64,000 nucleotides of DNA, from assembly GCA_965116415.1 (NCBI GenBank), contig OZ220693.1:436837-500836 (forward strand), written 5' to 3'. The first letter of the stretch is position 1; every line of letters starts with the position of its first letter. This stretch comes from Dehalococcoidia bacterium (GTDB taxonomy: Bacteria > Chloroflexota > Dehalococcoidia > Lucifugimonadales > UBA1123). Positions 11,571 to 50,463 of this stretch are shown piece by piece. A program made the translations under genes and the position numbers. Below the pieces are notes generated by a model that made no database searches, was not told where the DNA came from, and saw only the letters and a program-made list of their open reading frames with translations.

Positions 11571-14500
11571 TCAGGTGTAGCCGTTTCGACGGTCCCACGC
11601 CGAGGACGCCGGTGAACGGTCGGCAGGGTCGCCATATCCGCCACCGCCAGAGGATAGTGCAACGATGCGGTCACCGGGCTTCACGACAACTCCGGTCAGC
11701 TTGGTCGGCAGCACCGTCTCTTCCCCATTGGAGACAATCGAGTACGTGTGAGGAAGACCGGGTTCTCCGCCCAAAACACCGAACGGCGGCACTATGGCGC
11801 CATCCCCCGCGGTGTTGAGAAGAGCGTCCCCTTCGCCTTCGTAGACGATCTCACATACGGCCCCGAGTCCCCCTCGCCACCTGCCCTTTCCCGCAGAGCC
11901 TGGCCTGAGCTCGTGGTTCACGACGAACAGTGGGAAGCGCTCCTCTGTGACCTCGACGCTGTTGGCGCGGATACCTCCAGCGACGTTCACCTCGCCGACG
12001 CAGCTCCATCCGTCGTGTCCGAGCGACGCGCCCCCGCCGCCCCTGGCCATGAAGAAGTGCCACAGGAACGACTCGCCGGTCCTCGGGTCGATTCCCGTTA
12101 TGGCGTACCGCAGGCGGCGCGAGAATCCGGCATTCACAGCCTCCGGCACAGCCTGGGACAGCGCCTTGAATATCGCCTCGACGATCTCCTCAGCACAGTG
12201 GTTGGTGCTCATACACACCGGCGCGGGAGAGTCAGCATTGACGATAAGACCTGTTGGCGCGATAACCTCCAGCGGCCCCATGGAGCCCTCGTTTTTTGGT
12301 ATGTCGTAAGGGGCTACGTACATGATGGCGGCGTGTGCGAGCGACCTCGTGTTTGCGTACGCGCTGTTGATGAATCCGGTGACCTGGCGGGAGGACTCGC
12401 TCAGGTCGATGGTCATCGTGTCGCCGGCGATTGTGATCTTCGCCCTGATTGGAATAAGCTCCGAGTCGAACCCGTCGTCGTCTACCAGGGACTCACCATA
12501 GTAGACACCGTCAGGCCATTCGGTGATGAAGCTCCTCACCTGTGCCTCAGTTGCATAGAGAATTCCGTCAACGATTCGCGTCAGTCTCTCAGCCCCGTAG
12601 TGGTCGACAAGCTCGCGGATCCGGCGTTCAGCGGTCAACACGGAACCGATCTGGGCGTTGAGGTCGCCCAGGAAGTTTTTAGGAGTCCTGACGTTGGCAG
12701 CCATCATCTGCAGCAGGTCGTCACGAGGGACGTCGCGGTCATAGATCCTGAGAGGCGGAATGCGAAGACCCTCGTGGAAGATCTCGCTCGCTGAGGGATT
12801 GTAGCCCCCGTGCGTGCCTCCACCGACGTCTGTATGGTGCGCCCTGTTGACGGTCATGAACGCAAGATCCCCGTCCACAAATACTGGCCTGATCACGGTC
12901 AGATCGGGCAGGTGTGATCCTCCAAAGTACGGATCGTTGAGGAGGAACACGTCGCCCGGGGATATACCGTCTCCGAAGTAGTCGAGGACGGCGCGTCCGG
13001 CGACTGGAAGTGCGCTCATGTGTACAGGGATGCCCTCACCCTGCGCGACCATCCTGCTCTGGCTGTCCAGGATTGCCGTGGAAAAGTCCCTGCTCGCGTT
13101 AAGTATCTGCGAGAGGGCCGTGCGGAGCATTACGTCCATCATCTCGATGGCGATGGACTCCAGCCGGTTTCCGACTACGGACAGGGTAACCGAGTCTGCC
13201 TCTGCGTTTTCAGGGGCTTGCGTCCCACTCCCGACGTCGATGTGCATGATGCCCCGTGCATCTAGCGTCGCGGAGCATCCCTCCCCGACTACCACCGTGT
13301 TGTAGTCGGTGTTGACTACAGACGGACCCTGCATTGACGGGAGCGGGCTAGCCTCACTGCTGCCATCTTCTGCCAATTCTCGCGCTGCAACTGCTGCCAT
13401 AGGAAGTCTTCCGACCGCGCTTGCCCGAAGGGTGACGATCCTGATGTCCTGCTCCTGCTGGCGATATGCATAGAGGCGTTCGAAACGAAGGTGCATGTTT
13501 TCTGCCCATCGCAGCCGCAGCTCATCGTCAGGCAGGTGCAGGTCCGGCACGTCCACGGTCACCTCGTAGATCTGGTCGAGGTAGCGCATGTCCGCCGAGA
13601 GGCTCACGCAGATGTCTGAGTCAGTTGCGCCGGCCGAGCGAAGCCGCGCCCTGCCCTCTTCAGCCAGGTCTCCGAATGCTGAGCGCACCCCGTCGAGGTC
13701 CACCGTGCTGAGGCTCGACGGGTGTGAGACGGCCAGGTCGTACTTCAGGTCTGACGCCATCATTCCGAACGCCGACAGCACCGGGCCAGCAGGGGGAATC
13801 AGGACGCGGCTGATGCCGATCTCGGCGGCTACTCTCGTTGCCACGAGTCCAGCGGCCCCTCCGAAGCCCATCAGTGCGAATTCACGGGGATCGAGTCCAC
13901 GGCTCACTGAGGCCAGCCGAATGCCCTCTGCGATCGAGCTGGACACGACGCGCAGAATCCCCTCGGCCGCCGCCTCAACATCCACGCCCAGCGGTTCCGC
14001 TATCTGGCTGCGAATCGTATCGACGGCGAGGTCTTCGTCAAGCTGAACGGCCCCGCCGAGGAATCTATCGGTGTCCAGCAGGCCGAGAACTAGCGCGGCG
14101 TCCGTTACAGTCGGCTGGGTTCCGCCCTTCCCATAACAGGCAGGGCCTGGGTCGGCTCCGGCACTGGCCGGGCCGACACGGAGCACCCCGCCTTCGTCCA
14201 CACGGGCTATGCTTCCGCCACCCGCGCCGAGCGTGTGAATGTCGACTGTTGGCACAGCGATCTTCCAGCCCGCCTCGAATTTCTCTCCCGTGACATGCGG
14301 TGCGCCATCTTCAATCAACGTGATGTCGGTGCTTGTGCCTCCCATGTCCAGGGCTATGACCCGATCTTCACCCAGTTGCCTGGCTACGTACGCTGCGCCA
14401 GCCGCTCCCCCCGCCGGGCCGGAAAGTATGGACCGCACCGCCTGTTCGGAGCTGTCCGAAACCGGGGCGATACCGCCGTTTGACTGGATTACGAAGAGTG

Positions 14501-15233
14501 GGACCGCACCGCCGGCTTCGGTAATTCGACCTTCGAGTCGCAGGAGGTAGCTGGCCAGTGACGGGCCGACGTAGGCGTTCAGAGCCGTGGTCGATAGTCG
14601 GTCGAACTCCTTGATTTGGGGCAGTATGACGTGAGACGAGGAGACATAGGCCTCCGGCATCATCTCCCTGACTATCCGGTCAGCTTCCATCTCATGCTCG
14701 GGATTCAGGAACGAGAACAGGAAGCAGATCGCGACAGAATCAACGCCTTCAGACTTCAGGTACTCAACCTGACGCCTCAACTCCTCAACGTCGAGTTCCC
14801 GCCGCACCGCACCACTGGAGTCAACGCGCTCAGGCGCCCCGACCCTCAGATACCTTGGCGCCAGCGGCTCGACCTGGTCCATTCGCAGGTTGTACCTGTC
14901 TTCTTTCAGGCCTTCACGAATCTCGAGTAGATCGCGAAACCCTTCCGTTGTAATCAGGCCCACCCTGGCGCCTTTCCTCTCAACAAGTGTGTTCGTAGCC
15001 ACCGTGGTCCCGTGTATGAGGACCTCGGCGCTGTTCAACAACTCCTGCGGTTCCACTCCCAGGGTGGCGGCAAGCCCCTCGATGCCGTCGACGACGCCAA
15101 TCGACGGGTCGTCAGGCGTCGTTGGTGTCTTGAAGACGAAAGGGGCTGCATCTCCCTCGCGCATCGCAACAAGGTCTGTGAAAGTTCCACCCACGTCGAT
15201 TCCGATTCTCAATCCCTCTGTCCTTTCGTTCAA
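11571..15233 (-). CDS. Fused hydantoinase A/B (5-oxoprolinase / N-methylhydantoinase family) ATP-dependent lactamase
   Basis: IDVGGTFTD, HGTTVATN, SGPAGG, DMGGTSTD, GAGGGS; B half has NDPYFGGSHLPD, HHTDVGG, GGGGYGDP. Confidence 0.92.
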   Translation of the reverse strand: MNERTEGLRIGIDVGGTFTDLVAMREGDAAPFVFKTPTTPDDPSIGVVDGIEGLAATLGVEPQELLNSAEVLIHGTTVATNTLVERKGARVGLITTEGFRDLLEIREGLKEDRYNLRMDQVEPLAPRYLRVGAPERVDSSGAVRRELDVEELRRQVEYLKSEGVDSVAICFLFSFLNPEHEMEADRIVREMMPEAYVSSSHVILPQIKEFDRLSTTALNAYVGPSLASYLLRLEGRITEAGGAVPLFVIQSNGGIAPVSDSSEQAVRSILSGPAGGAAGAAYVARQLGEDRVIALDMGGTSTDITLIEDGAPHVTGEKFEAGWKIAVPTVDIHTLGAGGGSIARVDEGGVLRVGPASAGADPGPACYGKGGTQPTVTDAALVLGLLDTDRFLGGAVQLDEDLAVDTIRSQIAEPLGVDVEAAAEGILRVVSSSIAEGIRLASVSRGLDPREFALMGFGGAAGLVATRVAAEIGISRVLIPPAGPVLSAFGMMASDLKYDLAVSHPSSLSTVDLDGVRSAFGDLAEEGRARLRSAGATDSDICVSLSADMRYLDQIYEVTVDVPDLHLPDDELRLRWAENMHLRFERLYAYRQQEQDIRIVTLRASAVGRLPMAAVAARELAEDGSSEASPLPSMQGPSVVNTDYNTVVVGEGCSATLDARGIMHIDVGSGTQAPENAEADSVTLSVVGNRLESIAIEMMDVMLRTALSQILNASRDFSTAILDSQSRMVAQGEGIPVHMSALPVAGRAVLDYFGDGISPGDVFLLNDPYFGGSHLPDLTVIRPVFVDGDLAFMTVNRAHHTDVGGGTHGGYNPSASEIFHEGLRIPPLRIYDRDVPRDDLLQMMAANVRTPKNFLGDLNAQIGSVLTAERRIRELVDHYGAERLTRIVDGILYATEAQVRSFITEWPDGVYYGESLVDDDGFDSELIPIRAKITIAGDTMTIDLSESSRQVTGFINSAYANTRSLAHAAIMYVAPYDIPKNEGSMGPLEVIAPTGLIVNADSPAPVCMSTNHCAEEIVEAIFKALSQAVPEAVNAGFSRRLRYAITGIDPRTGESFLWHFFMARGGGGASLGHDGWSCVGEVNVAGGIRANSVEVTEERFPLFVVNHELRPGSAGKGRWRGGLGAVCEIVYEGEGDALLNTAGDGAIVPPFGVLGGEPGLPHTYSIVSNGEETVLPTKLTGVVVKPGDRIVALSSGGGGYGDPADRSPASSAWDRRNGYT

Positions 15234-31899: not shown

Positions 31900-33429
31900 G
31901 TGGCAGTAACACTGGTAAGAGGTCGCCATGTGGTCTGCCGGGTCACGGGTAGAAGCTCCGCCGAGATTGTGGACGACGGCGCAGTCGTTGTGGACAACGG
32001 GGCTGTCGCTGAAGTTGGGACTTTCGACGATCTTCACGGCAGGTACCCATCCGCGGAAGTGATCGGCTCGAATCGCCAGGTCGTCATTCCCGGACTGATC
32101 AACGCACATCACCATGTAGGGCTGACACCATTCCAGCTAGGCGTTCTCGACGAACCTCTTGAGAGGTGGATCATAGCCAGGTGGGCTATTCGCGATGTTG
32201 ATCCGTACCTCGATACCCTGTGGTGCGCCATCCAGATGATCGAGTCCGGCATAACCACTGTCCAGCACAACCACATGGCTGCCAGACTCCCTCCCGGAGT
32301 AGAGCTGTACGACGCCGCGTCCGAGATTGTGAACGCGTACGAAGACAGCGGCATGAGAGTCGCATTCTCGCTCTCGACTCGCGATCAGAACCACCTTGTG
32401 TACGAGGACGATTCACGGTTTCTGTCTACGCTGCCTTCAGAGCTCGCTGAGCGAGCGCGGGCGCAGATTGCGGCACGTCCAGTCGAGCTCGAAGAGTACC
32501 TGTCAGCGTGCGGTGAATTGCACGACCGACGACAGGGGCCCAGGACAAACATCTTCATAAGCCCTCACAACGTCCACTGGTGTTCGGACGAGATGCTAAC
32601 TGCGATCAGCGACTTCGCGCGGAGACATGAGACAGGACTCCACATACATCTCCACGAGACCATCTACCAGAGAATGTACGGCAGTCGCCACTGGAACGGG
32701 ACGCCGCTGGCCCACCTGGCCGAATTGGGGGTCCTTGGTCCAGAGGTGTCCTGCGCCCATGGCGTCTGGTTGTCAGAGGCGGACATCGACATACTTGCGG
32801 AGACGGGGACCGCTATCTGCACCAACCCCAGCTCCAACCTCAGGCTCAAGAGTGGGATTGCACCAATCAACCGTCTCCTGGAAAGTGGCGTGCTGGTCGC
32901 CCTCGGTATCGATGAAGCCGGCCTCAACGACGACAACGACATCCTCCAAGAGATGCGGATGGCTCAGAAGATCCACAGGGAACCGGGTGTCGACGCCCCC
33001 TACCCCACATCGCACGAGATCCTGGAACTCGCCACAGCAAACGGGGCCAGGGTGACCTACTTCGACCAAGTCGGCACGATTGAACCCGGCAAGCGCGCCG
33101 ACCTTGTCGTACTAAACCTCGACCGCATTGAAGACCCTTATCTTGACCCCGACACTGGCATCGTCGACGCGCTCGTTTACAGGGGCAAGGGACTCGACGT
33201 AGACACCGTAATGGTGGACGGAGAGGTCCTGCTGAAAGACGGCGAATTCCTGAAGGTGGACAAATCAGAAGTCAGGGCCAGACTGCAGGAGTCCCTGGCA
33301 AGAGAGCTGACCGACCGGGAGATTCGACGCGCTGAGTTGTCTCGAGACCTGCTGCCATACGTCAACAGGTGGTTCTCAGCCTGGGAGCTGGAAGAGGGGC
33401 CTCAGCACTACACGTACAATCTTCTCTAG
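31900..33429 (+). CDS. Amidohydrolase (Atz/Trz, cytosine/guanine deaminase-like)
   Basis: INAHHH, IHLHET, CAHGVW, SNLRLKSG, LGID. Confidence 0.87.
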   Translation: MAVTLVRGRHVVCRVTGRSSAEIVDDGAVVVDNGAVAEVGTFDDLHGRYPSAEVIGSNRQVVIPGLINAHHHVGLTPFQLGVLDEPLERWIIARWAIRDVDPYLDTLWCAIQMIESGITTVQHNHMAARLPPGVELYDAASEIVNAYEDSGMRVAFSLSTRDQNHLVYEDDSRFLSTLPSELAERARAQIAARPVELEEYLSACGELHDRRQGPRTNIFISPHNVHWCSDEMLTAISDFARRHETGLHIHLHETIYQRMYGSRHWNGTPLAHLAELGVLGPEVSCAHGVWLSEADIDILAETGTAICTNPSSNLRLKSGIAPINRLLESGVLVALGIDEAGLNDDNDILQEMRMAQKIHREPGVDAPYPTSHEILELATANGARVTYFDQVGTIEPGKRADLVVLNLDRIEDPYLDPDTGIVDALVYRGKGLDVDTVMVDGEVLLKDGEFLKVDKSEVRARLQESLARELTDREIRRAELSRDLLPYVNRWFSAWELEEGPQHYTYNLL

Positions 33430-38698: not shown

Positions 38699-39874
38699 AT
38701 GGCAGTGACGGCCAGCGCAGTGGTCATAGGCGGCGGTGTCATGGGAGCGAGCATACTGTTCAACCTTGCGAAGCGAGGCGTGGATGGCCCCATCCTTCTT
38801 GAACGCGACACTCTCGGTTCAGGCTCCACAGGTCGTTCCTCCGGGGCGATTCGAATGCACTACTCAACCGAGGTCAATGCGCGCCTCGCGTGGGAGAGCC
38901 TTCAGGTGTTCCAGAACTGGGCCGATGAGGTCGGCGGAGACGGCGACCCGGGGTTCGTCAGGACCGGGTACATGGTCATTGCCCCTGACCGCGAGGTCGA
39001 CGGCTTCCATCACAACATCAAGATGCAGCAACAGGTCGGAATCGATACGAGAATCGTTGGCTGGCAGGAGGCTAAAGAACTGGCGCCGGACTTCCACCTG
39101 GGCGAAGACGAGCACTTCGCCTGGGAAGACCAGTCAGGTCACGGCGACCCGTCCGGCACTGGGCTGGCGTTTACGATGCGAGCCCGAGAACTGGGGGCCA
39201 GGGTCGTTCTGGAATCGCCAGCCACGTCAGTAGAGGTTGAAAACGGACGCGTGGTCGGAGTTCGTACAGGGACCGAGCTGTATTCGACTGACACGGCAGT
39301 GATTGCCACTGGGCCGTGGTCTTCGAGGTTCCTCAACCACCTCGACATAGACCTTCCCCTCCTCGCAACGAGGCACGAGGTGATCCTCATCAGAAGGTCT
39401 GAGACCGGTGTGGGGCATCATCCGGGCGGCGGGGACATGGCGAACCTGATCTACTTCAGGCCAGAGGCAGACAACCTCACACTTGTCGGCAACGGAAACC
39501 GGGAAGAAGAGGCAGACCCCGATACCTACAACCAGAGGGCGAGCACCGACTATGTCCAGGACGTCTGGAGTCGCCTGGCACTGCGCATTCCCGGCATCGC
39601 AGACGGCCAGCTAGCCCATGGCTACGCGGGACTCTACACTACTACTCCCGACCTGCACCCCGTGATGGACCGCGTCGACGGCATCGAGGGCCTGTACATC
39701 TGCACAGGCTTCAGCGGGCACGGATTCAAGCTCGCGCCAGCCGTAGGCGTGTGCATGTCGGAGCTGATCCTCGAAGGTGAGTCGCGGCTGGTGGACATAT
39801 CAACGCTCAGGATGGGCCGCTTTTCGGACGGCTCACTCAACACCACCCAGTACGACTTCAAGGTCATCGCATAG
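38699..39874 (+). CDS. FAD-dependent oxidoreductase (DAO / sarcosine oxidase beta-like)
   Basis: IGGGVMG, GSTGRSSG, TPD.HP, GFSGHGFK. Confidence 0.88.
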   Translation: MAVTASAVVIGGGVMGASILFNLAKRGVDGPILLERDTLGSGSTGRSSGAIRMHYSTEVNARLAWESLQVFQNWADEVGGDGDPGFVRTGYMVIAPDREVDGFHHNIKMQQQVGIDTRIVGWQEAKELAPDFHLGEDEHFAWEDQSGHGDPSGTGLAFTMRARELGARVVLESPATSVEVENGRVVGVRTGTELYSTDTAVIATGPWSSRFLNHLDIDLPLLATRHEVILIRRSETGVGHHPGGGDMANLIYFRPEADNLTLVGNGNREEEADPDTYNQRASTDYVQDVWSRLALRIPGIADGQLAHGYAGLYTTTPDLHPVMDRVDGIEGLYICTGFSGHGFKLAPAVGVCMSELILEGESRLVDISTLRMGRFSDGSLNTTQYDFKVIA

Positions 39875-39939: not shown

Positions 39940-42414
39940 CTAGGTGGCCACGATGTTCACCAGGCGACCGGGCACGTAGATTACGCGGCGGACCTCTTTG
40001 CCTGCCGTGTGGGTCTTGGCTCGATCAGACTCGAGGGCCCTTGCCTTGGCGTCTTCTTCGGCGATGTCAGCCGGCACGTCTATCCGGTCCCTCAGACGAC
40101 CGTTGACCTGAACGACTAACGTGATCGTCTCGTCGGCGGCAAGCTCCGGTTCCCACTCAGGCCACGGCTGCTGGTGGATACTGAAAGACTCGCCCACTCG
40201 TTCCCAGATCTCTTCTGCAAGGAAGGGAGTTACCGGCGACATCAGCAGAGCCAAACTCCTGACGGCCTCATTCCACGCGCCTGAGTCAACTACGCCCGAG
40301 TCCCACTCCTGGCCCAGCGAGTTCGAGAACTCCATCATGGACGCGATCGCCGTGTTGAACTTAAAGCGCTCGACATCCTCCGTTACTTTCCTGATTGTCT
40401 GGTGCTGAAGGCGGCGCAGTTTCCTGACAGCGTCGGGATGCGTATCAGACTCGTCCAGTACAGAAGCATCACGGGTTGCGAGGTCCCAGACACGATTGGT
40501 CCACCGCGCCATACCGTTGATGCCGTCGTCGTTCCACTCGCCTCCGGCCTCCCACGGCCCCATGAACATCATGTAGGTGCGCACAACGTCCGTACCGACG
40601 TCGGACACGTAGGCGTCGGGGGCGATCACGTTACCCCTGGACTTGCTCATCTTCTGGTGGTTGAAGACTATCGTGCCCTGGTTCACCAGGCGGACGAATG
40701 GCTCGTCGAAGTCGAGGTATCCCAGATCGCGCAGCGCCTTGACGAAGAAACGCGCATACAGCAGATGCATGACTGCGTGCTCCACGCCGCCCGTGTACTG
40801 GTCAACGGCGCCCCACTGTCCAAGGGCGTCTGGATCGAACGGGCCGTCTTCGAAGTGAGGGCTCGCATAGCGCAGGAAGTACCAGGACGAGTCGACGAAC
40901 GTGTCCATCGTGTCGGTCTCTCGCTTGGCGGGACTGCCGCAGTCCGGACACGTCGTGTTAACGAAGCCCTCGTGAAGCGCCAGCGGAGAGTCGCCTGTCG
41001 GCAGGAACTCTGCGTCCTCGGGCAGAAGCACCGGCAGGTAAGATTCAGGAACCGGGGTCTCGCCGCACTTCTCACAGTAGACGATCGGAATGGGAGTTCC
41101 CCAGTATCGCTGCCGGCTAATGAGCCAGTCGCGCATCCTCAAGTTGACCGCGCGTTGGCCCCATCCGTTGACCTGGATGAAGTCGGCGATGCGCTCAAGC
41201 CCCTCGGCGTTGGACATGCCATCGAACTGGCCTGAATTGACCTGTGTTCCCGGTTCAATGTAGGCCTCTTCAAGGTCGGAGCCGTCCCAGTCCGGCGGTG
41301 CGATGACTGTACGGATCGGCAGACCGTACTTCTTGGCAAATTCGAAGTCGCGGACATCGTGAGCCGGAACGCCCATTACCATGCCGGTGCCGTAGCTCAG
41401 CAGGACGTAGTCTGCGACCAGGATCGGTACACGCTCGTCGTTCAACTTGTTTACCGCGAACGAGCCTGTGAAGACGCCAGTCTTCTCCTTCTCAGTAGAT
41501 AAACGCTCGATCTCCGATTGCAGTCGAGCCTGCTTGACGTATGCCTCGACCTCGTCGCGATGTTCGCTGGTTGTCAGCTTATCGACGAGAGGATGTTCAG
41601 GAGCCAGTACAATGAATGTCACGCCGAACACGGTGTCGATTCGGGTCGTAAAGGTGCGTATTGACTTCTCATCCAGACCGTACTCGGATATGTCGAAGTC
41701 GACCTCGACGCCCTCGGAGCGCCCGATCCAGTTCGTCTGCATCGTATTGATACGGTCGGGCCAGTCGATCTTGGAGTGGTCGAGCAACTCGTCGGCATAG
41801 TCGGTGATCTTGAAGAACCACTGCTCCATGTCTCTGTGGACTACAGATGTGTCGCATCGTTCGCAGAGGCCGTTGACAACCTGCTCATTGGCCAGCACCG
41901 TCTGGCACGACGGGCACCAGTTGACGGGGGCGTCCGACCTGTAGGCCAGCCCGTTCTTATAGAGCTGCAGGAAGAACCACTGGTTCCACTTGTAGTAGTC
42001 GGGCGTACAGGTGACGACCTCGCGGTCCCAGTCGTACATGGGCCCCATCGACCTGAGCTGACGCCGCATGTTCTCGATGTTGGACATAGTCCACGTATGG
42101 GGATGGATGCCGTTCTTGATGGCCGCGTTCTCGGCGTTCAGCCCGAAGGCGTCAAAGCCCATCGGATGGAGCACGTTGAAACCCTTCATTCGCATGAATC
42201 GGGCATGGACGTCGGCGCCGGTCATCGCGAACCAGTGGCCAACGTGGAGGTCTCCAGACGGATACGGGTACATGTGGAGTTCGTACCACTTCGGACGCGG
42301 GTCGTCGTCCTCGACGGTGTAGACCCCGTCTTCGTCCCAGCGATCGCTCCACCTCGTCTGCATGTCATGATGGTCGTATGACATGCGTGAACTTTGCGAT
42401 GCAGTAGTTGCCAT
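39940..42414 (-). CDS. leuS: Leucine--tRNA ligase
   Basis: MYPYPSGDLHVGH, SRQRYWGTPIP, GGVEHA, KMSKSRGN. Confidence 0.97.
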   Translation of the reverse strand: MATTASQSSRMSYDHHDMQTRWSDRWDEDGVYTVEDDDPRPKWYELHMYPYPSGDLHVGHWFAMTGADVHARFMRMKGFNVLHPMGFDAFGLNAENAAIKNGIHPHTWTMSNIENMRRQLRSMGPMYDWDREVVTCTPDYYKWNQWFFLQLYKNGLAYRSDAPVNWCPSCQTVLANEQVVNGLCERCDTSVVHRDMEQWFFKITDYADELLDHSKIDWPDRINTMQTNWIGRSEGVEVDFDISEYGLDEKSIRTFTTRIDTVFGVTFIVLAPEHPLVDKLTTSEHRDEVEAYVKQARLQSEIERLSTEKEKTGVFTGSFAVNKLNDERVPILVADYVLLSYGTGMVMGVPAHDVRDFEFAKKYGLPIRTVIAPPDWDGSDLEEAYIEPGTQVNSGQFDGMSNAEGLERIADFIQVNGWGQRAVNLRMRDWLISRQRYWGTPIPIVYCEKCGETPVPESYLPVLLPEDAEFLPTGDSPLALHEGFVNTTCPDCGSPAKRETDTMDTFVDSSWYFLRYASPHFEDGPFDPDALGQWGAVDQYTGGVEHAVMHLLYARFFVKALRDLGYLDFDEPFVRLVNQGTIVFNHQKMSKSRGNVIAPDAYVSDVGTDVVRTYMMFMGPWEAGGEWNDDGINGMARWTNRVWDLATRDASVLDESDTHPDAVRKLRRLQHQTIRKVTEDVERFKFNTAIASMMEFSNSLGQEWDSGVVDSGAWNEAVRSLALLMSPVTPFLAEEIWERVGESFSIHQQPWPEWEPELAADETITLVVQVNGRLRDRIDVPADIAEEDAKARALESDRAKTHTAGKEVRRVIYVPGRLVNIVAT

Positions 42415-42486
42415 CTGGAAACTCTCTCCGTCCGCTGGCGCCTAAAGGCTTACCACTAGCTACTTGACTCTCACACTCTTGCCAAC

Positions 42487-42733
42487 AAAAAAACCCGTCC
42501 CCATGTAAGGGACGGGACGTCGTTTCGATACCCGCGGTACCACCCTGATTTCCTACCGGCCTCGCGGAAGGACACTCACTTGGCTGTAACGGCGCTAACC
42601 GTCCGGACTTACTTGGCCAATTTCAGGCCGGAAGCTCCAGGGCGAGTTCGAGTCGGTCACTGCGCCGGGTTCTCACCTCTTCCCGGCTCTCTACGGCCGA
42701 TACCGACCTCTACTACTCCCTTTCGCAGCCTTT
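42487..42733 (-). promoter_or_regulatory. T-box riboswitch (Leu) with intrinsic terminator
   Basis: Minus strand: AGTA, AGAGAG, GGTGAGA, specifier CTG, T-box AGGGTGGTACCGCG (42533-42546), terminator CCCGTCCC..GGGACGGG followed by a T run. Confidence 0.92.
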
Positions 42734-42797
42734 AGCTATCTCAAAAACGCTAGCACAGCGTCAAAAGTTGAGTCAAGAAAACTCGTTGAAATTCGTA

Positions 42798-42825
42798 TTG
42801 CCATTTCCGAAATTTAAGTTAGAAT
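42798..42825 (+). promoter_or_regulatory. sigma70-type promoter of the demethylase cluster
   Basis: TTGCCA-N16-TAGAAT. Confidence 0.55.
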
Positions 42826-42927
42826 TTGTCGTATCGACAGGCTAATACTCGCACATACTTCCCAGCAACAGTCCACCGTAGCAAGCCAACACCGGTTTCG
42901 ACTCACCACATACGAGGGACAATTGAG

Positions 42928-45396
42928 ATGGCCGACATCAAGTTGCCGGACAGGGCGAGGGCCGTAATCGTCGGCGCAGGCATCGCAGGATGCAGCGTCG
43001 CCTACCACTTGACGAAACTCGGCTGGCGTGACGTAGTCGTCGTCGACCAGGGACCACTCTACGAGACAGGCGGCTCCACTTCTCATGCTCCAGGTCTCGT
43101 CTTTCAGCTCAACGCGTCGAAGACCATGACCAACTTCGCGAGCTACACCGTTGGTCTGTGGAAGCAATTGGAGTTGGACGGAGAACCTTGCGTTAATCCA
43201 GTCGGCAGCCTGGAGGTTGCCTGGACTGACGAGCGGCTCGCCGATCTGAAACGCAAGGCCGGGTACGGAATGAGCTGGGGGGTCGAGGGCCACGTGATCA
43301 GCCCCGGCGAAGCCCGTGAAATGATCCCGATGCTGTCTGATCGCATCAAGGGCGCGCTGTACGTGCCCTCTGACATTCAGACTCGGCCAACGCGCCCCGC
43401 AGAGGCAATGGCAAAATGTGCAGAGCAGAGAGGCGCCTCCATCTTCGGCAATGTCGAGGTCACTGGTTTCGGCATGGAGAACGGTCGCGTCACTGCGGTG
43501 CAGACGTCACAGGGGGATGTGGAGACAGAGTTGGTCGTAGCAGCTGCGGGGATCTGGGCGCCGAAGCTAGGCGGTATGGCAGGTGTCTCGATTCCGCTGT
43601 CCCCGATGGAGCACCTGTACGCTGTTACGACTCCCCTACCCGGTCTGGCTGGCGCCAAGGAGGAGGTCACCCAACCGCTACTTCGCCATCAGGACCATTC
43701 AATGTACTTCCGCCAGGTTGGCGAGAGCTACGGCATCGGGTCGTACAACCACGAGCCACTACTCGTCGATGCCAGCGAGATTCTCTCCCACGACGAGGCT
43801 CCGATCGCTCCCGCGGAAACTGAGTTCACGCCTGAGCACTTCGAAAAGGCCATTGCATCGGCCGGCGAAATACTGCCAGCCCTCAAGAATGTCGGATTGA
43901 CCCGCAAGTTCAACGGCATGTTCTCGTTCACTCCCGACGGGTTTCCGATTCTCGGCGAGTCTCCCAGCCTCAGGGGATTCTGGTCGGCGCAGGCAGTGTG
44001 GATCACACACGCCGGTGGAGTCGGGAAAGCGGTTGCCGAGTGGATCGTCAATGGAGAACCGACAACAGACCTCCACGAGTGCGACATCCGAAGATTCCAC
44101 CCCCATGCGTTCAGCCGTCCCTACGTCAAGACAAGAGCGGCCCAGCAGTACCGCGAGGTGTACGACATCATCCACCCTCGCCAGCAAATCGAGGAACCCA
44201 GGAACGTAAGGGTGACGCCCTTCTACGCACGACAGAAGGAGCTCGGGGCCGTCTTCTTTGAAAGCGCGGGTTGGGAGAGGCCACAGTGGTACGACACCAA
44301 CGAGGGCCTGCTTGACTCACTGACCGTCGCTGGCGAATCAAGAACAGGCTGGGAAGCCCGCGAGTGGTCTCCAACCGTGGCAGCAGAGCACGTCGCAACT
44401 CGCGAACGCGTCGCGATGTTCGACCTGACCCCATTCGCCAAGTTCGAAGTCTCCGGACCGAATGCGCTCAAGGGGCTTCAACGGCTTGCTGCCAATCAGA
44501 TGAACAAGCCTGTGGGAACGATAACCTACACGCCAATGCTCACGCCCTCCGGCGGAATGAAGTGCGACCTTACCATTACTCGGCTCGCGGAAGACCGCTT
44601 CATGGTGGTTACAGGCGGCGGAATGGGCCTTCATGACCTGCACTGGATCGAGTCCCACCTTCCTAATGACGGCTCTGTAACTGTCAAGGACATCTCGTCA
44701 GGCTCGTGCTGCATTGGGCTGTGGGGTCCACGGGCGCGAGACCTATTGAGCCTGGTGTGCGACGATGATCTGTCCAATGATGGCTTCCCGTACATGACCG
44801 CAAGGCAAATCAGTATTGCCGAAGTGCCGGCACTTGCGCTCCGCATCTCGTACGTCGGAGAACTCGGCTGGGAGATATACACTCCCAGCGAACACGGCCT
44901 ACGGCTCTGGGACGTGCTCTGGGAGGCCGGACAGCCACTTGGTGTAATAGCTGCCGGTGGAGGAGCATTCGACTCGCTGAGACTGGAAAAGGGATACCGG
45001 TTGTGGGGCAACGACATCCACACCGAATACAACCCGTATGAGGCCGGGACGGGATTCGCGGTGAGGATGAGAAAGGGAGCGTTCATAGGAAGGGACGCCC
45101 TCAGAGAGGTCCGCGCAGAAGGCGTGGAGCGCAAGCTCTGCTGCATCACGTTGGACGACCCTGACGCCGTAGTCACAGGTAAGGAACCGATCGTCGACGG
45201 CGACGAAGTACTCGGCTATGTGACGAGCGCGAACTACGGGCACTCCATAGGACGTGGCATCGTGTACGGCTACCTACCCGTCAGCCACGCTGACGCTGGA
45301 ACGAGTGTTGACGTGGTCTACTTTGGAGAACGGCTCCAGGCCACTGTGGCCCAGGAGCCTCTGTATGACCCAAGCGGCGCGAAGATGAAGGTGTAA
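42928..45396 (+). CDS. Dimethylglycine oxidase/dehydrogenase-like FAD + GcvT (THF-binding) protein
   Basis: VGAGIAG, GGSTSHAPG (flavinylation His), FSFTPDG, WERP.W, RISYVGELGWE, SLRLEKGY; ATG at 42928. Confidence 0.9.
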   Translation: MADIKLPDRARAVIVGAGIAGCSVAYHLTKLGWRDVVVVDQGPLYETGGSTSHAPGLVFQLNASKTMTNFASYTVGLWKQLELDGEPCVNPVGSLEVAWTDERLADLKRKAGYGMSWGVEGHVISPGEAREMIPMLSDRIKGALYVPSDIQTRPTRPAEAMAKCAEQRGASIFGNVEVTGFGMENGRVTAVQTSQGDVETELVVAAAGIWAPKLGGMAGVSIPLSPMEHLYAVTTPLPGLAGAKEEVTQPLLRHQDHSMYFRQVGESYGIGSYNHEPLLVDASEILSHDEAPIAPAETEFTPEHFEKAIASAGEILPALKNVGLTRKFNGMFSFTPDGFPILGESPSLRGFWSAQAVWITHAGGVGKAVAEWIVNGEPTTDLHECDIRRFHPHAFSRPYVKTRAAQQYREVYDIIHPRQQIEEPRNVRVTPFYARQKELGAVFFESAGWERPQWYDTNEGLLDSLTVAGESRTGWEAREWSPTVAAEHVATRERVAMFDLTPFAKFEVSGPNALKGLQRLAANQMNKPVGTITYTPMLTPSGGMKCDLTITRLAEDRFMVVTGGGMGLHDLHWIESHLPNDGSVTVKDISSGSCCIGLWGPRARDLLSLVCDDDLSNDGFPYMTARQISIAEVPALALRISYVGELGWEIYTPSEHGLRLWDVLWEAGQPLGVIAAGGGAFDSLRLEKGYRLWGNDIHTEYNPYEAGTGFAVRMRKGAFIGRDALREVRAEGVERKLCCITLDDPDAVVTGKEPIVDGDEVLGYVTSANYGHSIGRGIVYGYLPVSHADAGTSVDVVYFGERLQATVAQEPLYDPSGAKMKV

Positions 45397-45522
45397 AGTC
45401 AATTTCAAGGAGTACGGGGCTGTAGATGGGGTCGTACGGATCCGTTCCGATCTCCCGTACGTAGGGTCAGTGAGTTGGAACTCGCACTCCGAGTTCAGAA
45501 GTTGTGGCAGGAGGTGGTCTCG

Positions 45523-46773
45523 GTGGTCAAGTCGATAAGCCACACGGTAACAAGACCAGGACGACGCCCAGGCGATTCCAATGTCAACATACCGGTCCCC
45601 ACTGATCTCGCCACAGTACCCGGCATTCCACAAAGGCCGGTTGACGTGGCGTTCTACAGCAGAGAGCACCCGCTGGAGTCTCAGGCAGTCTACAAATCCG
45701 CCGATCGCCAGTGGGCGGTTATCCACCAGTCGAAGGACATCGACGAATTCAGAACAGGTCACGACGAACGAATGGAGCCGATGTACCAGGAGGGCCTGGT
45801 ATCCGGCGACGTCGAGCCGACAGGCACGCCCATTTCGGGCGAAGACTTGACCGATGAAATTCGCCAGTTTGCACGAGACCTTGGTTTCGGAGAAGTAGGC
45901 TTCGCCAAACACGACCGTCACTACACCTACACTGGCAAGAAACGCTGGGCAAAGTTCGAACACGCCATCTGTCTGGCTTACGAGCAGGACTACCGAATGA
46001 CGCAGTCGGGGCCGAGTCCCGAGGCTGACCAGGCGCGATTCGAGACCTACGAGTTCGAGCAGGCCGGATGTCTGAAGCTGGCTGAGTTCATCAGGGGCAG
46101 GGGTTACCGAGCGCAGGTCCACGATGGATACGATTGCAGCGGGCCTTACATACCCATGTTCGTTGAGGCGGGGCTTGGACAGCTCGGTGCGAACGGCCAA
46201 CTGTTGTCGCCGCACTTTGGGTCGCGGGCGAGGCTGATGCTCGTCACTACCGACGCCCCCGTCACCTACGACGGGCCTGAAGACTACGGCATCCACAAGT
46301 TCTGCCAGGAGTGCCAGGTCTGCGTCAATCGCTGCCCCGGAAGGGCCTTGACGCGAGACAAGGTCTGGTGGCGAGGGGTTGAAAAGAACAAGCTCATCTA
46401 CGAGCGGTGCCGGCCCATCATGATCACCTACCACGGCTGCGCGGTCTGCATGATCGTCTGTCCCGTCCAACGCTACGGGATGAAGCCCGTGATGGAGCAC
46501 TATGTTGAGACAGGGAAAGTGCTCGGCAAGGGCACGGAGAACCTCGAAGGATACCCGTTGAAGGGCAAGGGTCACTTCGGCCCTGGCGAATTACCGAGCT
46601 TCAAGAGGGACTTCTTCGAAATCCCACACGGGCGTGAAGAAGACTGGCTCTTCGAGAGATTCAAAGAGAAACTGCGTTCATCCGGTGTTCCGGCCGAGTC
46701 TGAACTGCTAGAATTCGCGACCGACGTTAAGAGAGTGCTCGACAAGGGTGAAACGACATATGACATAGCTTGA
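45523..46773 (+). CDS. Reductive dehalogenase / QueG-like Fe-S (probably cobamide-binding) protein, no Tat signal
   Basis: AGLGQLGANG..LSPHFGSRARL..VTTD, FCQECQVCVNRCP, C...CAVCMIVCP; GTG at 45523 after AGGAGG. Confidence 0.8.
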   Translation: MVKSISHTVTRPGRRPGDSNVNIPVPTDLATVPGIPQRPVDVAFYSREHPLESQAVYKSADRQWAVIHQSKDIDEFRTGHDERMEPMYQEGLVSGDVEPTGTPISGEDLTDEIRQFARDLGFGEVGFAKHDRHYTYTGKKRWAKFEHAICLAYEQDYRMTQSGPSPEADQARFETYEFEQAGCLKLAEFIRGRGYRAQVHDGYDCSGPYIPMFVEAGLGQLGANGQLLSPHFGSRARLMLVTTDAPVTYDGPEDYGIHKFCQECQVCVNRCPGRALTRDKVWWRGVEKNKLIYERCRPIMITYHGCAVCMIVCPVQRYGMKPVMEHYVETGKVLGKGTENLEGYPLKGKGHFGPGELPSFKRDFFEIPHGREEDWLFERFKEKLRSSGVPAESELLEFATDVKRVLDKGETTYDIA

Positions 46774-46800
46774 GAACTCTCGTGAGTTAACCGTTGGATT

Positions 46801-47685
46801 GTGGAGGCTCGATTGCAGACGTTTTCTGAATCACTGAAGTCCGGTAAGTTCGTAGTTACAACTGAGCTGAACCCCCCAAAGGGTACAGACCTTCGTAGGC
46901 TGTTCAGGGAAGCCGATGCCCTCAGTGGCATGGTGGACGCATTCAACCTTACGGACTCTCCAGGAGCCAACATGTCAATGGCTCCCATAGCAGCAGCCCA
47001 CTTGATGCGGGACCGCGAAATTGAGCCCATTTTGCAAGTGACGGGGCGTGACCGTAATCGCATTGCCATTGAGGGGGAAATACTAGCGGCCGCCGCGCTG
47101 GGGGTTACAAACGTTCTCTGCATGAGCGGCGACCCTCCCGGGCGTGGGGATCACCCGGACGCCGTGGGAGTCTTCGACCTCAGGGCCGAAACGCTGCTCG
47201 AGGCCGTCTCTTCGATGAACTCTGGAACCGACATGTACGGCAACGACCTAAGGGGAACCCCGTCGATCCTCGCTGGAGCCGTTGCCAATCCGGGCGCTGA
47301 CGACCTGGACGTCGAGCTTGCCCGCATGGAGGAGAAGGTCCGCATGGGAGCGTCCTTCTTCCAGACACAGGCTGTTTACGACGCGGCAGCGTTCGAGACG
47401 TTCATGGAGACCGCCAGGGGATTCGGGGTCCCCGTGCTGGCAGGCATGATCGTCCTGAAATCGGCGCGAATGGCGAGGTTCCTGGACGCGAATCTGCCCG
47501 GTGTATCTGTGCCTGACAGCATCATCGAGGAAATGGATTCAGCGGATGTCCCTGCTGAGACCAGCATCGAAATCACATCCCGCCTCATCAGCGATGTACG
47601 CGACATGTGCGACGGTACGCACATCATGGCTATCGGATGGGAGTCCCGCATTCCTGAGATTCTGGAGAAATCCCGCCTGAACTAA
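46801..47685 (+). CDS. metF: Methylenetetrahydrofolate reductase
   Basis: ELNPPKG, NLTD, TGRDRN, GDPP, K..GA.FFQTQ. Confidence 0.88.
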   Translation: MEARLQTFSESLKSGKFVVTTELNPPKGTDLRRLFREADALSGMVDAFNLTDSPGANMSMAPIAAAHLMRDREIEPILQVTGRDRNRIAIEGEILAAAALGVTNVLCMSGDPPGRGDHPDAVGVFDLRAETLLEAVSSMNSGTDMYGNDLRGTPSILAGAVANPGADDLDVELARMEEKVRMGASFFQTQAVYDAAAFETFMETARGFGVPVLAGMIVLKSARMARFLDANLPGVSVPDSIIEEMDSADVPAETSIEITSRLISDVRDMCDGTHIMAIGWESRIPEILEKSRLN

Positions 47686-47873
47686 TTGTCATCGCCCACG
47701 GCGACTGAGGAATCTCTACTGCTTACTGTTCAAGAAAGGCGTGTGGGGTCTTGCGCCTGGCACGCCAGCTTTCGGTTCCATCCCGGCAAGTGAAAGGAGG
47801 CTAATCTGCATAAATCACATAGCGGAATTACTTAAGGTTGTCGGATTAAGGCTGAACAACTGGAGGACAGATA

Positions 47874-49124
47874 ATGGGGGAAACTCTAGTTATTGGCGGT
47901 CTCAAGAATAGGATCTTGCCTGTTAACCTTAGGCAGAGCGGAAACAGCGACGCGAAGATGCTCATTTCAACGCGCGTTAGGAAGTCTCCGTGGTGGCACA
48001 TGTCGAAGGCTGCAGGCTGCTGGGCATACACGGTTTATAACCACCTGTATCACCCTCGGGCGTACATCAAGCCGGAAGACGGCGGCCTGATGGCCGAGTA
48101 CGATACATTGACGAATCATGTGAGTATGTGGGACGTTGCGGTCGAACGACAGATCCAAGTCAAAGGACCTGACGCAGCCGCCTTTGTAGACTACCTGATC
48201 ACCCGCGACGTGTATGAGCGTGTCCCACCCATGCAGGCCCGCTATGTGATCCTGTGCAACCAGTACGGCGGCATAATCAACGATCCAGTGCTCCTGCGTG
48301 TGGCAGAGGACGAATTCTGGTTCAGCATCTCAGACTCTGATGTCCTCCTGTGGGCCCAGGGTGTCAACTCCACGGGCAGATTCAATGTGGACGTCCATGA
48401 GATAGACGTGTCGCCTGTCCAGATCCAGGGACCCAAGTCGGTTGATCTTCTTGAAAAGATGGTCGGCTCCCATGTTAGGGAGATCCCCTACTACGGACTG
48501 GTCCACGACAAGGTGAACGGCTATCCCGTCACAATCTCGCGCACGGGCTTCTCCGCTGAGGTCGGATTCGAGATCTACCTTCACAACGCGATGCTCTACT
48601 CGGACGAAATCTGGCCTTACATCATGGAACAGGGTGAGGAGTTCAACCTCGGTGTTATCGCGCCAAGCCACATCCGTAGACTGGAAGCGGGGATTCTCTC
48701 CTACGGCCAGGATATGGACATCGAGAGCAACCCTTTCGAGGTCCGACTCGGCTGGCAGGTGGACCTGCAAAAGGGAGACTATATCGGAAGAGAAGCGCTA
48801 GTACGAATCAAGGAAGAGGGTGTCCAGCAGCGGCTGGTCGGACTGCGTGTCGGAGGCGAACCCATCACCTGGTACAACGAGGACTTTTACCTCGTGAAAG
48901 ACAGGGACTCCGGCGCCGATGTGGGCTATGTCACGAGCGCCTTCTGGTCGCCAAGCCTGGGTTCAAACATCGCCCTCGCGGTGATGCCTCGATCACACTG
49001 GAGGCGCGGCACCGAGGTCATGGTACAGCTTCCGAAGGACGGCATCGTAGGTGCACAGGTAGTACGGGTGCCCTTTGTCGACCCGACCAAGGAACTCCCC
49101 AAGCTTGCTCTCGCGGCGGTCTGA
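47874..49124 (+). CDS. GcvT-family THF-dependent methyltransferase, DmdA (DMSP demethylase)-like
   Basis: R.RKSP, YTVYNH..HP, WDVAVERQ, NDPVLLR, FWFSISDSD, QIQGPKS, SRTGFS.E.GFEIY, RRLEAG.LSYG.D. Confidence 0.8.
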   Translation: MGETLVIGGLKNRILPVNLRQSGNSDAKMLISTRVRKSPWWHMSKAAGCWAYTVYNHLYHPRAYIKPEDGGLMAEYDTLTNHVSMWDVAVERQIQVKGPDAAAFVDYLITRDVYERVPPMQARYVILCNQYGGIINDPVLLRVAEDEFWFSISDSDVLLWAQGVNSTGRFNVDVHEIDVSPVQIQGPKSVDLLEKMVGSHVREIPYYGLVHDKVNGYPVTISRTGFSAEVGFEIYLHNAMLYSDEIWPYIMEQGEEFNLGVIAPSHIRRLEAGILSYGQDMDIESNPFEVRLGWQVDLQKGDYIGREALVRIKEEGVQQRLVGLRVGGEPITWYNEDFYLVKDRDSGADVGYVTSAFWSPSLGSNIALAVMPRSHWRRGTEVMVQLPKDGIVGAQVVRVPFVDPTKELPKLALAAV

Positions 49125-49142
49125 TAAGCAGACAGTTGATCC

Positions 49143-49174
49143 GGGGACGGTGGCCAGTCTACTGCCCCGTCCCC
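49143..49174. terminator. Hairpin between convergent genes
   Basis: GGGGACGG...CCGTCCCC. Confidence 0.5.
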
Positions 49175-49179
49175 AACGT

Positions 49180-50463
49180 CTAAGTGCGCGCCCTTACCGA
49201 CGGTCGAGACTTGACAGGCGCCTTCGCCATGAATACCAGGACCATGGACACGAGTGCGGCCCCTGAGAAGCTCAGGAATGCGATAGTGTAGCTGCCTGTC
49301 GTGTCGAATACGTACCCGCTGATGATCGGCCCAACGATGATCCCGAGCATCTGGATCGTGGACCTGAATCCCTGGATCGTCGCGTATGAACGACGTCCGA
49401 AATAGTCGGCAATCAGGGACTGCGGTATCACCGAAATCCCGCCCTGCGAAGCTGAGAATGCCACCAGGATGGGAATCACGGCAGCCACGCTCGGCGCGCG
49501 AGCCATGAACACGATCGACACGGACATCAACGCAAGCGAGGCGACCATCACGTAGCGTTTGTTGATGTAGTCGCCGAGAGCGCTGAGGCCGAACCTGCCG
49601 GGTATGCTCATCAGCCCGACAGAGCCTGCGAGAGCGGCCGCAGTCACGCTCGACGCGCCCAGGTCGACGAAGAACGGCACAAGGTGGAGTCCGATGCCTC
49701 CGCTCACCAGCGAACGCGCCATGATGGACAGCGTCAGGTACCAGAAGCTGGATGTCTGCAGGGCCTCCCGTGCGGTGAAGTCACTCGAGAGGTCCGGCAG
49801 CACCGGACGTCGCGACGCGCCTGACGCCCTGACTTCCTCAGGCACAATCCCATCGGGGTAGTAGCCGTACGGCTCCGGTCTGTGCCTCATGACCGCCGCG
49901 ACCGGAACGCCCAAAGCTGCGATGAAGACGCCTACCATTAAAGCTGCCGGTCGCCAGCCATAAGTTTCCACAAGCCAGCCCAGGGCCGGCACGAACAGGC
50001 CTCCTATTCCAACTCCAGACCACATGATTCCAAAGGCAAGGCCTCGTTTGCGGTTAAACCAGTTGGCTACAGACGCCGTGATCGGGGTGCTCATCCCAAG
50101 ACTGTTGCCCAGGGCGATCATGAACACGTAGACGAAGAAGAACGCCAGCAGCCCGTCGACGCGGCTCATCGCCATGTATCCCAGGCCCATGAGCGGTATG
50201 CCTATCGCAATCAGTCTCCGGGGCCCAAATCGGTCGACGGCCCAGCCTTCTACCGGGCCGATGAGACCTGACTCAAGTCGAGCGACGCTGAAGACGACGG
50301 AGATTGTCGTGCGACTCCAGCCAAATTCCTCGCCCAGCGGAATGATAAAATTCCCGAAGCCGTGGAAGTTGATGCCGGACGCGATCGACATCGCGGCCCC
50401 ACCCGCGACCACAATCCACCAGCCGTAGAATATCCTCGGGTTGTTTGGAACGTTAGCTGCCAG
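49180..50463 (-). CDS. MFS transporter (OFA/MCT-like); start uncertain (CTG 50463 or GTG 50412)
   Basis: FYGWWIV N-terminal motif, DRFGPR, WFNRKRGLA, DYFGRR. Confidence 0.85.
   Translation of the reverse strand: MAANVPNNPRIFYGWWIVVAGGAAMSIASGINFHGFGNFIIPLGEEFGWSRTTISVVFSVARLESGLIGPVEGWAVDRFGPRRLIAIGIPLMGLGYMAMSRVDGLLAFFFVYVFMIALGNSLGMSTPITASVANWFNRKRGLAFGIMWSGVGIGGLFVPALGWLVETYGWRPAALMVGVFIAALGVPVAAVMRHRPEPYGYYPDGIVPEEVRASGASRRPVLPDLSSDFTAREALQTSSFWYLTLSIMARSLVSGGIGLHLVPFFVDLGASSVTAAALAGSVGLMSIPGRFGLSALGDYINKRYVMVASLALMSVSIVFMARAPSVAAVIPILVAFSASQGGISVIPQSLIADYFGRRSYATIQGFRSTIQMLGIIVGPIISGYVFDTTGSYTIAFLSFSGAALVSMVLVFMAKAPVKSRPSVRART

Follow-up and report, generated by a model that had tools for sequence, protein, structure and literature searches.

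Four co-oriented genes in a 64,000-nucleotide stretch of the genome of a Dehalococcoidia bacterium (contig OZ220693.1; the whole stretch is referred to below as the window) encode a dimethylglycine oxidase (DMGO)-type enzyme, a short iron-sulfur protein resembling the reductive dehalogenase RdhA, the methylenetetrahydrofolate reductase MetF, and a relative of the demethylase DmdA. The cluster is best explained as a divergent RdhA-type class III cobamide enzyme recruited into a folate demethylation operon of SAR202-type marine Dehalococcoidia, and its conserved context suggests a new job for the RdhA fold. We propose, with a probability of roughly 0.4, that the RdhA-like protein works in the cytoplasm as a cobamide reductase: it would take a halide, or a leaving group of similar kind, off a substituted N-methyl compound and so feed folate-dependent demethylation. 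A preliminary description of the window had raised a halogenated-methylated substrate and a new role for this fold; both are carried forward here as hypotheses, the former as the preferred reading. The genome that contains the window (G000) is a single contig of 3.76 Mb with 97% completeness, and the nearest database records are titled metagenome-assembled genome (MAG) Dehalococcoidia bacterium or SAR202 cluster bacterium. In window coordinates, the four genes are:

42928–45396, plus strand: DMGO-type gene, 822 aa, ATG start with GAGGGA upstream; the reading frame is open from 42826
45523–46773, plus strand: RdhA-like gene, 416 aa, GTG start with GGAGG 8 nt upstream
46801–47685, plus strand: metF, 294 aa, MTHFR domain
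47874–49124, plus strand: DmdA-like gene, 416 aa, GCV_T and GCV_T_C domains

The genes are bracketed by leuS (39940–42414, minus strand) and a convergent major facilitator superfamily (MFS) transporter gene (49180–50412, minus strand), and are separated by gaps of 126, 27, and 188 bp, in that order. The shared orientation and the 27-bp spacing of the RdhA-like gene and metF, both noted in the preliminary description, were confirmed from the open reading frames, the gap being exact, and its four domain calls (DMGO-like, RdhA-like Fe-S, MetF, and DmdA-like) were borne out by Pfam and NCBIfam matches. GTG at 45523 was taken as the start of the RdhA-like gene because its homologs are 416 residues long; TTG at 45475 is probably not the start.

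The RdhA-like protein scores below the family boundary of the reductive dehalogenase (RDH) model TIGR02486 (103.7 bits, cutoff 160.35), gives 50.4 bits against the QueG model TIGR00276 (cutoff 200), and has no match to PF13486 (RdhA) at E ≤ 0.01; the Fer4_7 and Fer4_16 domains do match it. All eight cluster cysteines, C261/264/267/271-P and C296/306/309/313-P, which form the motifs C-x2-C-x2-C-x3-CP and C...C-x2-C-x3-CP, are invariant in a 51-sequence alignment, as is Arg237, and Tyr176 is at least 90% conserved. In a profile alignment the Tyr176/Arg237 pair coincides with a tyrosine and an arginine of another protein encoded in the genome, one that scores above the RDH cutoff. By a manual count on the phmmer alignment, which has low posterior probability around the tyrosine, the pair also falls opposite Y426/K488 of NpRdhA, numbers that we take to denote the active-site tyrosine and its partner. 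Passages of the QueG structure paper (PMC4646009) state that class III enzymes are without a cobamide sequence motif, that a tyrosine above the corrin is common to all of them, that an arginine partner is present in RdhA and missing from QueG (the PceA pair being Y246/R305), and that more uncharacterized class III families may exist.

Among solved structures the best sequence match is NpRdhA (PDB 4ras; phmmer E 8e-22, residues 153–333 matched to 385–572), the other relatives being PceA-type enzymes and, at E 2e-7, QueG. Foldseek ranked an AlphaFold2 model of the protein (51 sequences, mean predicted local distance difference test score (pLDDT) 81.3) in the same way, with NpRdhA (E ~1e-11) ahead of PceA (~1e-10) and QueG (~3e-6); the top matches to NpRdhA and PceA have a probability of 1.00, E values of 1e-11 to 1e-9, and query TM-scores (TMq) of 0.44–0.50. 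The model thus predicts the RdhA three-dimensional fold. Read from its sequence, the N-terminus carries RPGRRPGD with no hydrophobic stretch behind it and no Tat signal, and residues 1–30 are modeled as strands (block pLDDT 91, 85, and 94); the protein is therefore predicted to be Tat-less and cytoplasmic. No rdhB lies beside its gene, the flanking genes being those for DMGO and MetF. In its fold, its redox chain, and its proton-donor pair the protein resembles RdhA, yet it is outside the curated family boundaries. It appears to represent a divergent RdhA-type branch of the class III cobamide/two-[4Fe-4S] reductases, in which cobamide binding is predicted.

A profile search of 1.84 billion representatives with the RdhA-like protein returned 3685 clusters at E ≤ 1e-3 and 207 at E ≤ 1e-30. 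Names of the homologs, from ESM Atlas and the clusters, gave only “hypothetical protein,” “4Fe-4S binding,” and scattered automatic names, and no function. At E ≤ 1e-20 no fused forms of 729–2080 aa were found, which is weak evidence; longer proteins did turn up among the representatives, namely NpRdhA-type self-sufficient forms and an ABC-ATPase fusion that probably stems from an error in gene calling. Because a second RDH-type protein of the genome (427 aa; G000:C1:2201921-2203204, L010:8521-9804) passes TIGR02486, with 179.4 bits against the cutoff of 160.35, this aerobic-type genome also encodes a more canonical cytosolic RdhA.

The association of the RdhA-like gene with its three partners was examined in a species-level scan (one genome per species), which returned 80 loci. 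In a quick IQ-TREE phylogeny (LG+G4) the window and 46 other loci form one ortholog clade, with a Shimodaira-Hasegawa-like approximate likelihood-ratio test (SH-aLRT) value of 100. On the evidence of tblastn of the neighbors, at least one partner gene lies beside the ortholog in 39 of these 46 loci: DMGO, MetF, and DmdA-like genes are all present in 25, DMGO and DmdA-like genes without MetF in nine, and partial sets in five (two with DMGO only, and one each with DMGO and MetF, MetF and DmdA-like, and DmdA-like only). No partner was present in the remaining seven; three ortholog loci (L020, L025, and L040) are cut by contig ends. None of the 34 paralog-clade loci (62–67% identity) has any of the three partners. 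Linkage to metF and GcvT-type genes in other genomes, on whose presence the preliminary description had staked its proposal, is in this way borne out.

Gene order is also preserved. DMGO is directly upstream of the ortholog in 37/46 loci, the DmdA-like gene is downstream in 36/46, and MetF lies between the RdhA-like and DmdA-like genes in 27/46, at 11–141 bp from the former; this order is kept while identity of the RdhA-like protein drops to 71–72%. Around the core at least four flank types occur across subclades: leuS with MFS/GGT, copper amine oxidase with a peptide ABC transporter, HAD hydrolases with LysA/amidases, and phosphotriesterase/PfkB with a hydrolase and N-methyl-Trp oxidase. Because the flanks differ between subclades while the core persists, the three- or four-gene core moves as a unit, and the arrangement is far beyond chance. 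Co-occurrence was counted within the GTDB family of the window, the class-level sample being too sparse in matches (2 of 200 other genomes at E ≤ 1e-60, with 41–43% identity). Of 35 other family genomes, 22 hold the ortholog at ≥71% identity; all 22 have the DmdA-like gene (≥79%) and 21 have DMGO (≥72%), the exception being a 63% complete genome with its locus at a contig end.

The RdhA-like gene can be absent from the module, and so can metF. The nine loci with DMGO, RdhA-like, and DmdA-like genes and no metF form one clade (SH-aLRT 100). In all five metF-less genomes checked, four from this subclade and one with the DmdA-like-only locus L037, a 57–61% identical MetF is encoded elsewhere with no RdhA-like gene in its 1.5-kb flanks. 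Conversely, three genomes of the same genus (G226, G228, and G229; loci L109, L110, and L111) have contiguous DMGO, MetF, and DmdA-like genes, with DMGO-MetF spacings of 56–238 bp, and lack the RdhA-like gene; the best match there, at 63–64%, is a paralog. These three genomes offer a natural deletion/insertion comparison for the RdhA-like gene. Among the seven ortholog genomes with no partner at the locus, five were checked, and DMGO and DmdA-like genes were found elsewhere in four and neither in one (G007). The RdhA-like gene is dispensable for the other three genes, and in the family sample its ortholog was found only where other module genes are. Since sister genomes keep DMGO, MetF, and DmdA-like genes alone and one subclade has its metF elsewhere, the distribution agrees with an accessory enzyme by which the module is extended or supplied, and not with an obligate subunit of MetF, DMGO, or the DmdA-like protein.

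The paralogs point in a similar direction. The window genome has four family members, with 100, 62, 58, and 50% identity to the RdhA-like protein (the latter three at G000:C1:2943463-2944722, 552545-554008, and 1423714-1425033; L007, L008, and L009), and about four recur through the genus. Paralog P2 neighbors RsmG, an LPG-synthase-TM protein, and IlvD; P3 neighbors an enolase-superfamily gene and an Amidohydro_3 gene, each in 7/10 sampled loci; and P4 neighbors an MFS transporter in 10/10 and a cupin in 8/10. Paralogs with conserved partners of their own behave as substrate-diversified enzymes, not as a dedicated electron carrier.

The product of the first gene comprises DAO, FAO_M, GCV_T, and GCV_T_C domains (Pfam) and aligns over residues 10–819 to residues 5–827 of Arthrobacter N,N-dimethylglycine oxidase (PDB 1pj5; 855 bits), with 461 bits against mammalian dimethylglycine dehydrogenase (DMGDH); no NCBIfam model matches at its cutoff. 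Its architecture and similarity are those of a predicted dimethylglycine-oxidase-type flavin adenine dinucleotide (FAD)/folate enzyme. MetF matches PF02219 almost throughout (114.5 bits, cutoff 24; positions 3–286 of 287). Its best NCBIfam match is the C-terminal half of a YitJ-type bifunctional model (241.6 bits), and with 59.5 bits it falls well short of the 293.7 required by TIGR00676, the model for the E. coli-type NAD(P)H enzyme. The MetF alignment comprised the window protein, 26 of the 27 cluster orthologs, and one unlinked MetF, L055:8278-9153 being left out for an in-frame stop. The cluster metF is the only tblastn MetF match in the genome at E ≤ 1e-5, and MetV (PF12225) was not found in this 97% complete genome.

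The fourth protein matches GCV_T (142.7 bits) and GCV_T_C (56.7 bits). The likeness to DmdA given in the preliminary description stands insofar as the best model is that of DmdA (NF009133), with 223.8 bits against P. ubique DmdA (PDB 3tfh), but the score of 328 bits is below the equivalog cutoff of 410. Moreover, where 3tfh has the tryptophan of RSGWS...E.Y, the DmdA-like protein has the phenylalanine of RTGFS...E.Y, as do 35/35 orthologs; the folate-binding glutamate and tyrosine are retained. In the part of PMC7487153 that covers these residues, whose numbering was transferred via the W-x6-E-x-Y spacing, the tryptophan (“W171”) is described as contacting dimethylsulfoniopropionate (DMSP) and the glutamate and tyrosine as having folate roles. 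Because the cutoff is failed and phenylalanine occupies the DMSP-contact position, the protein is probably not a DMSP demethylase; it is predicted to be a DmdA-related, GcvT-fold, folate-dependent methyl or aminomethyl transferase. It also has an N-terminal extension of 28 residues (window 47874–47957; consensus MAQTLVIDGLK.R.LPINLRQSGNSDA) that has no counterpart in P. ubique DmdA and is conserved in 17/17 sequences inspected. A GcvT-fold demethylase next to MetF is known logic, as in the DmdA pathways and LigM-MetF-LigH, and because this pairing is already known, three of the four cluster genes are ordinary in kind.

Our preferred reading assigns the RdhA-like protein a reductive step ahead of the two demethylases. 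Electrons from a general low-potential donor would pass through the two [4Fe-4S] clusters to a base-off cobamide, which would reductively strip a halide or a similar leaving group off a substituted N-methylated compound, with Tyr176/Arg237 acting as the proton relay/donor pair. The product would then be demethylated onto folate by the neighboring enzymes: the DMGO-type enzyme would send N-methyl groups to methylene-tetrahydrofolate (methylene-THF), the DmdA-related enzyme would send methyl groups to methyl-THF, and MetF would interconvert the two. Cobamide binding, the reductive elimination chemistry, the position upstream of the demethylases, and the nature of the substrate are inferred.

Several observations beyond the anatomy of the cluster are in line with this proposal, and these are circumstantial. 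The genome uses cobalamin, encoding MetH and four further B12-binding-domain proteins. In the subclade without cluster metF, a type II haloacid dehalogenase (TIGR01428, 141.6 bits, cutoff 125.4) is encoded two genes upstream of DMGO in six loci (L028, L031, L032, L034, L035, and L056; L035:2105-2824), with a second HAD hydrolase alongside. In another subclade, four loci have an N-methyl-L-tryptophan oxidase (MTOX; NF008425, 475.5 bits, cutoff 257; L042:12729-13871) downstream of the cluster. A 70%-identical homolog of the RdhA-like protein is filed under the sponge Geodia barretti, and abstracts report brominated N-methyl betaines such as 6-bromohypaphorine from such sponges. The RNA libraries that contain close matches to the four genes, described below, likewise bear the label sponge metagenome.

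Other points weigh against the proposed role. The RDH cutoff is failed and PF13486 is not matched, so the chemistry may differ from dehalogenation, and in a low-confidence alignment counted manually, a methionine stands opposite R552 of NpRdhA. Seven of the 46 ortholog loci are without any neighbor, and in G007, whose completeness was not given, neither partner was found. The haloacid dehalogenase (six loci) and MTOX (four loci) neighbors are each confined to one subclade and may reflect single events. For the DMGO-type enzyme, true dimethylglycine oxidase is about as near a relative as any, which argues for plain dimethylglycine or sarcosine, and not an exotic compound, as its substrate. The linkage counts come from kin genomes that are not independent and so overstate the support, and the cofactor, activity, and substrate of the RdhA-like protein rest on prediction.

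A narrower version, in which the products of the four genes would together break down halogenated N-methyl betaines like those made in sponges, for example of bromohypaphorine type, is a long shot. Here the RdhA-type enzyme would debrominate the compound, the DmdA-related enzyme would move the first quaternary-amine methyl to THF, the DMGO-type enzyme would take the next methyl, and MetF would oxidize methyl-THF.

It is alternatively conceivable, if doubtful, that the gene order is inherited without shared function and that the substrate of the RdhA-like protein has nothing to do with the module, as would be so for a catabolic dehalogenase working on its own. The seven unlinked loci, the one genome whose ortholog has neither partner, the relatedness of all the genomes, and the varied contexts of this multi-paralog family would be expected in that case. 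However, the core stays co-oriented with short gaps while its flanks change at least four times, the DmdA-like gene accompanies every one of the 22 ortholog holders in the family sample, and the order survives at 71–72% identity.

A second alternative, which the preliminary description had put forward in the form of an electron partner of MetF, holds that the RdhA-like protein is a redox partner whose Fe-S clusters, with or without a cobamide, accept electrons from MetF during methyl-THF oxidation or from the DMGO flavin and so replace MetV/Hdr-type partners. Its gene is 27 bp from metF here and 11–141 bp from it across the 27 metF-bearing loci, MetF is of the short type in a genome with no MetV, and oxidation of methyl-THF requires an acceptor more positive than NAD+. 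Yet the nine-locus clade has no cluster metF, the MetF encoded elsewhere had no RdhA-like gene within 1.5 kb on either side in 5/5 genomes checked, and three genomes hold DMGO, MetF, and DmdA-like genes without an RdhA-like gene. The conserved Tyr/Arg pair is of catalytic type; the paralogs lie beside enolase/amidohydrolase, MFS/cupin, or RsmG/IlvD genes and no flavoenzymes; and the first gene product is far nearer to the O2-using dimethylglycine oxidase than to DMGDH, which means that no acceptor protein is needed. A redox-partner role is thus disfavored, and we regard it as improbable.

We think it more improbable still that the RdhA-like protein is a cobamide methyl carrier or demethylase, in which a quaternary amine, glycine betaine for instance, would lose a methyl group to Co(I), THF would receive that group through the DmdA-related protein, and the built-in clusters would re-reduce Co(II), with all four genes forming one betaine-to-sarcosine pathway. 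This scheme has the merit of accounting for all four genes together, has parallels in corrinoid methyltransferase systems and in the chloromethane cmu pathway, which likewise includes a MetF, and agrees with a DmdA-related protein that lacks the DMSP-contact tryptophan. Against it, the cobamide of RdhA-type enzymes is buried and methyl exchange with a second protein is not known for them, genomes that lack the RdhA-like gene still have the DmdA-like gene together with DMGO and MetF, and the Tyr/Arg proton-donor pair suits reductive elimination better. In addition, the genome encodes elsewhere two stand-alone proteins with a homocysteine S-methyltransferase domain, and classical B12-binding-domain proteins, for chemistry of this kind. 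At G000:C1:3709683-3713151, a stand-alone homocysteine S-methyltransferase-domain gene of 301 aa and a small gene for a B12-binding domain (257-aa frame) are separated by about 2 kb, and the two may constitute a split corrinoid methyltransferase system.

Identity with the epoxyqueuosine reductase QueG, to which one database source assigns a homolog by name and to which the weak TIGR00276 match of 50.4 bits could be taken to point, is effectively refuted: the score is far below the cutoff of 200, the true QueG of the genome is encoded elsewhere (G000:C1:2077409-2078584) and scores 348 bits, a profile alignment with it spans residues 216–316 only and sets a phenylalanine opposite Arg237, and QueG ranks third in Foldseek. 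The RdhA-like protein accordingly falls outside QueG; a place inside the QueG clade would, by the preliminary description, have refuted its proposal.

Two elements upstream of the cluster, in window coordinates, are:

42798–42825, plus strand: sigma70-like promoter match TTGCCA-16-TAGAAT, 10/12 positions, about 100 bp upstream of the DMGO-type gene
42505–42735, minus strand: T-box leader (RF00230) upstream of leuS, 121.6 bits, E 2.3e-27, with a terminator hairpin at 42494–42516

The preliminary description had placed the four genes behind one sigma70-like promoter. The site exists, but a single such match compares with 2.3 ± 1.4 in shuffled sequences and is not above chance; because the count is within the shuffle expectation, the match alone is no evidence of function. 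The leuS leader occupies most of the spacer between leuS and the DMGO-type gene and was the only Rfam match at E ≤ 0.1 in 42300–49400, where no riboswitch was found in the cluster. A scan of the same interval gave seven terminator-like sites, every one on the minus strand, and none on the plus strand within the cluster. Short contigs from RNA libraries (three runs of one study, labeled sponge metagenome) are 95–99% identical to parts of all four genes; one covers 45360–45559, across the gap between the DMGO-type and RdhA-like genes, and another covers 46672–46872, across the gap between the RdhA-like gene and metF. RNA libraries may contain DNA and the contigs do not show a single transcript, and we take them as no more than a faint sign that a close relative expresses these genes; the parts that they leave uncovered carry no meaning.

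Elsewhere in the window are a fused hydantoinase/oxoprolinase A+B gene (11571–15233, minus strand, 1220 aa) and amidohydrolase genes at 8245–9639, 1378–2817, and 31900–33429, which are in keeping with an amide/amine catabolic flavor of the region. A weaker MTOX/sarcosine-oxidase-like DAO gene is present at 38699–39874.

To our knowledge, only two functions have been characterized for class III cobamide enzymes, reductive dehalogenation and epoxyqueuosine reduction. The present proteins form a strongly conserved subfamily, 65–90% identical and with about four paralogs in each genome, in marine Dehalococcoidia that are abundant and uncultured; one member is fixed in a folate demethylation operon. 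This context narrows the search for its substrate to substituted N-methyl compounds and gives a set of proteins for co-expression. Should the RdhA-like protein prove to dehalogenate derivatives of methylated osmolytes, or to reduce them in another way, it would connect the marine cycles of organohalogens and of methylated amines and would explain part of the SAR202 paralog expansions. Under the betaine version, the RdhA-like protein would be without precedent in its family as an enzyme linked to one-carbon/folate metabolism in an aerobic marine heterotroph, and its DmdA-related neighbor would be the first GcvT-fold, folate-dependent quaternary-amine demethylase.

No published report of an RdhA-type enzyme in a folate demethylation operon was found in the literature searched. 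Searches for papers that treat reductive dehalogenases together with dimethylglycine, MTHFR, DmdA, or an aminomethyltransferase gave nothing relevant among the matches listed, and in four SAR202/sponge Chloroflexi genome papers (PMC5395668, PMC5864207, PMC6306507, and PMC6946804) the cluster and the RdhA-like family are unmentioned in the text covered by a term search. The closest published description found, as given in the relevant part of PMC12219181, is that of “simplified cytosolic” RdhA-like proteins of Chloroflexota and Desulfobacterota from cold-seep sediments, which average 395 aa and are presented there with no function or gene context. Compared by description only, they are, like the RdhA-like protein, short, cytosolic, without a vestigial domain, and found in Chloroflexota (PMC12219181).

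The best match in both sequence and fold is the catabolic, cytosolic NpRdhA of Nitratireductor pacificus (PDB 4ras and 6zy1), which shares with the RdhA-like protein a cytoplasmic location, the lack of a Tat signal, two [4Fe-4S] motifs, and a tyrosine at the Y426 position. The RdhA-like protein is, however, much smaller (416 aa against about 700 aa), matches only residues 385–572 of NpRdhA, and has no vestigial second cobalamin-like domain; by the manual count on the phmmer alignment it has arginine for K488 and methionine at R552. The gene contexts also differ, being folate/N-methyl metabolism for the RdhA-like protein and aromatic catabolism for NpRdhA. With QueG it has in common the class III architecture of a cobamide and two [4Fe-4S] clusters and the conserved tyrosine, as described in passages of PMC4646009. 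QueG, in contrast, has no arginine partner and has a different C-terminal domain.

In the DmdA pathways and in LigM-MetF-LigH of Sphingobium SYK-6, a GcvT-fold enzyme that transfers methyl groups to THF adjoins a MetF that recycles methyl-THF, as is the case here; we know of no RdhA-fold protein in either type of cluster. The cmu pathway (CmuA/CmuB with MetF2) combines cobamide attack on a carbon-halogen bond, transfer of the methyl group to THF, and a dedicated MetF, but it does so with a MetH-type corrinoid domain and an MtaA-like methyltransferase, whereas the cluster described here has the RdhA and GcvT folds.

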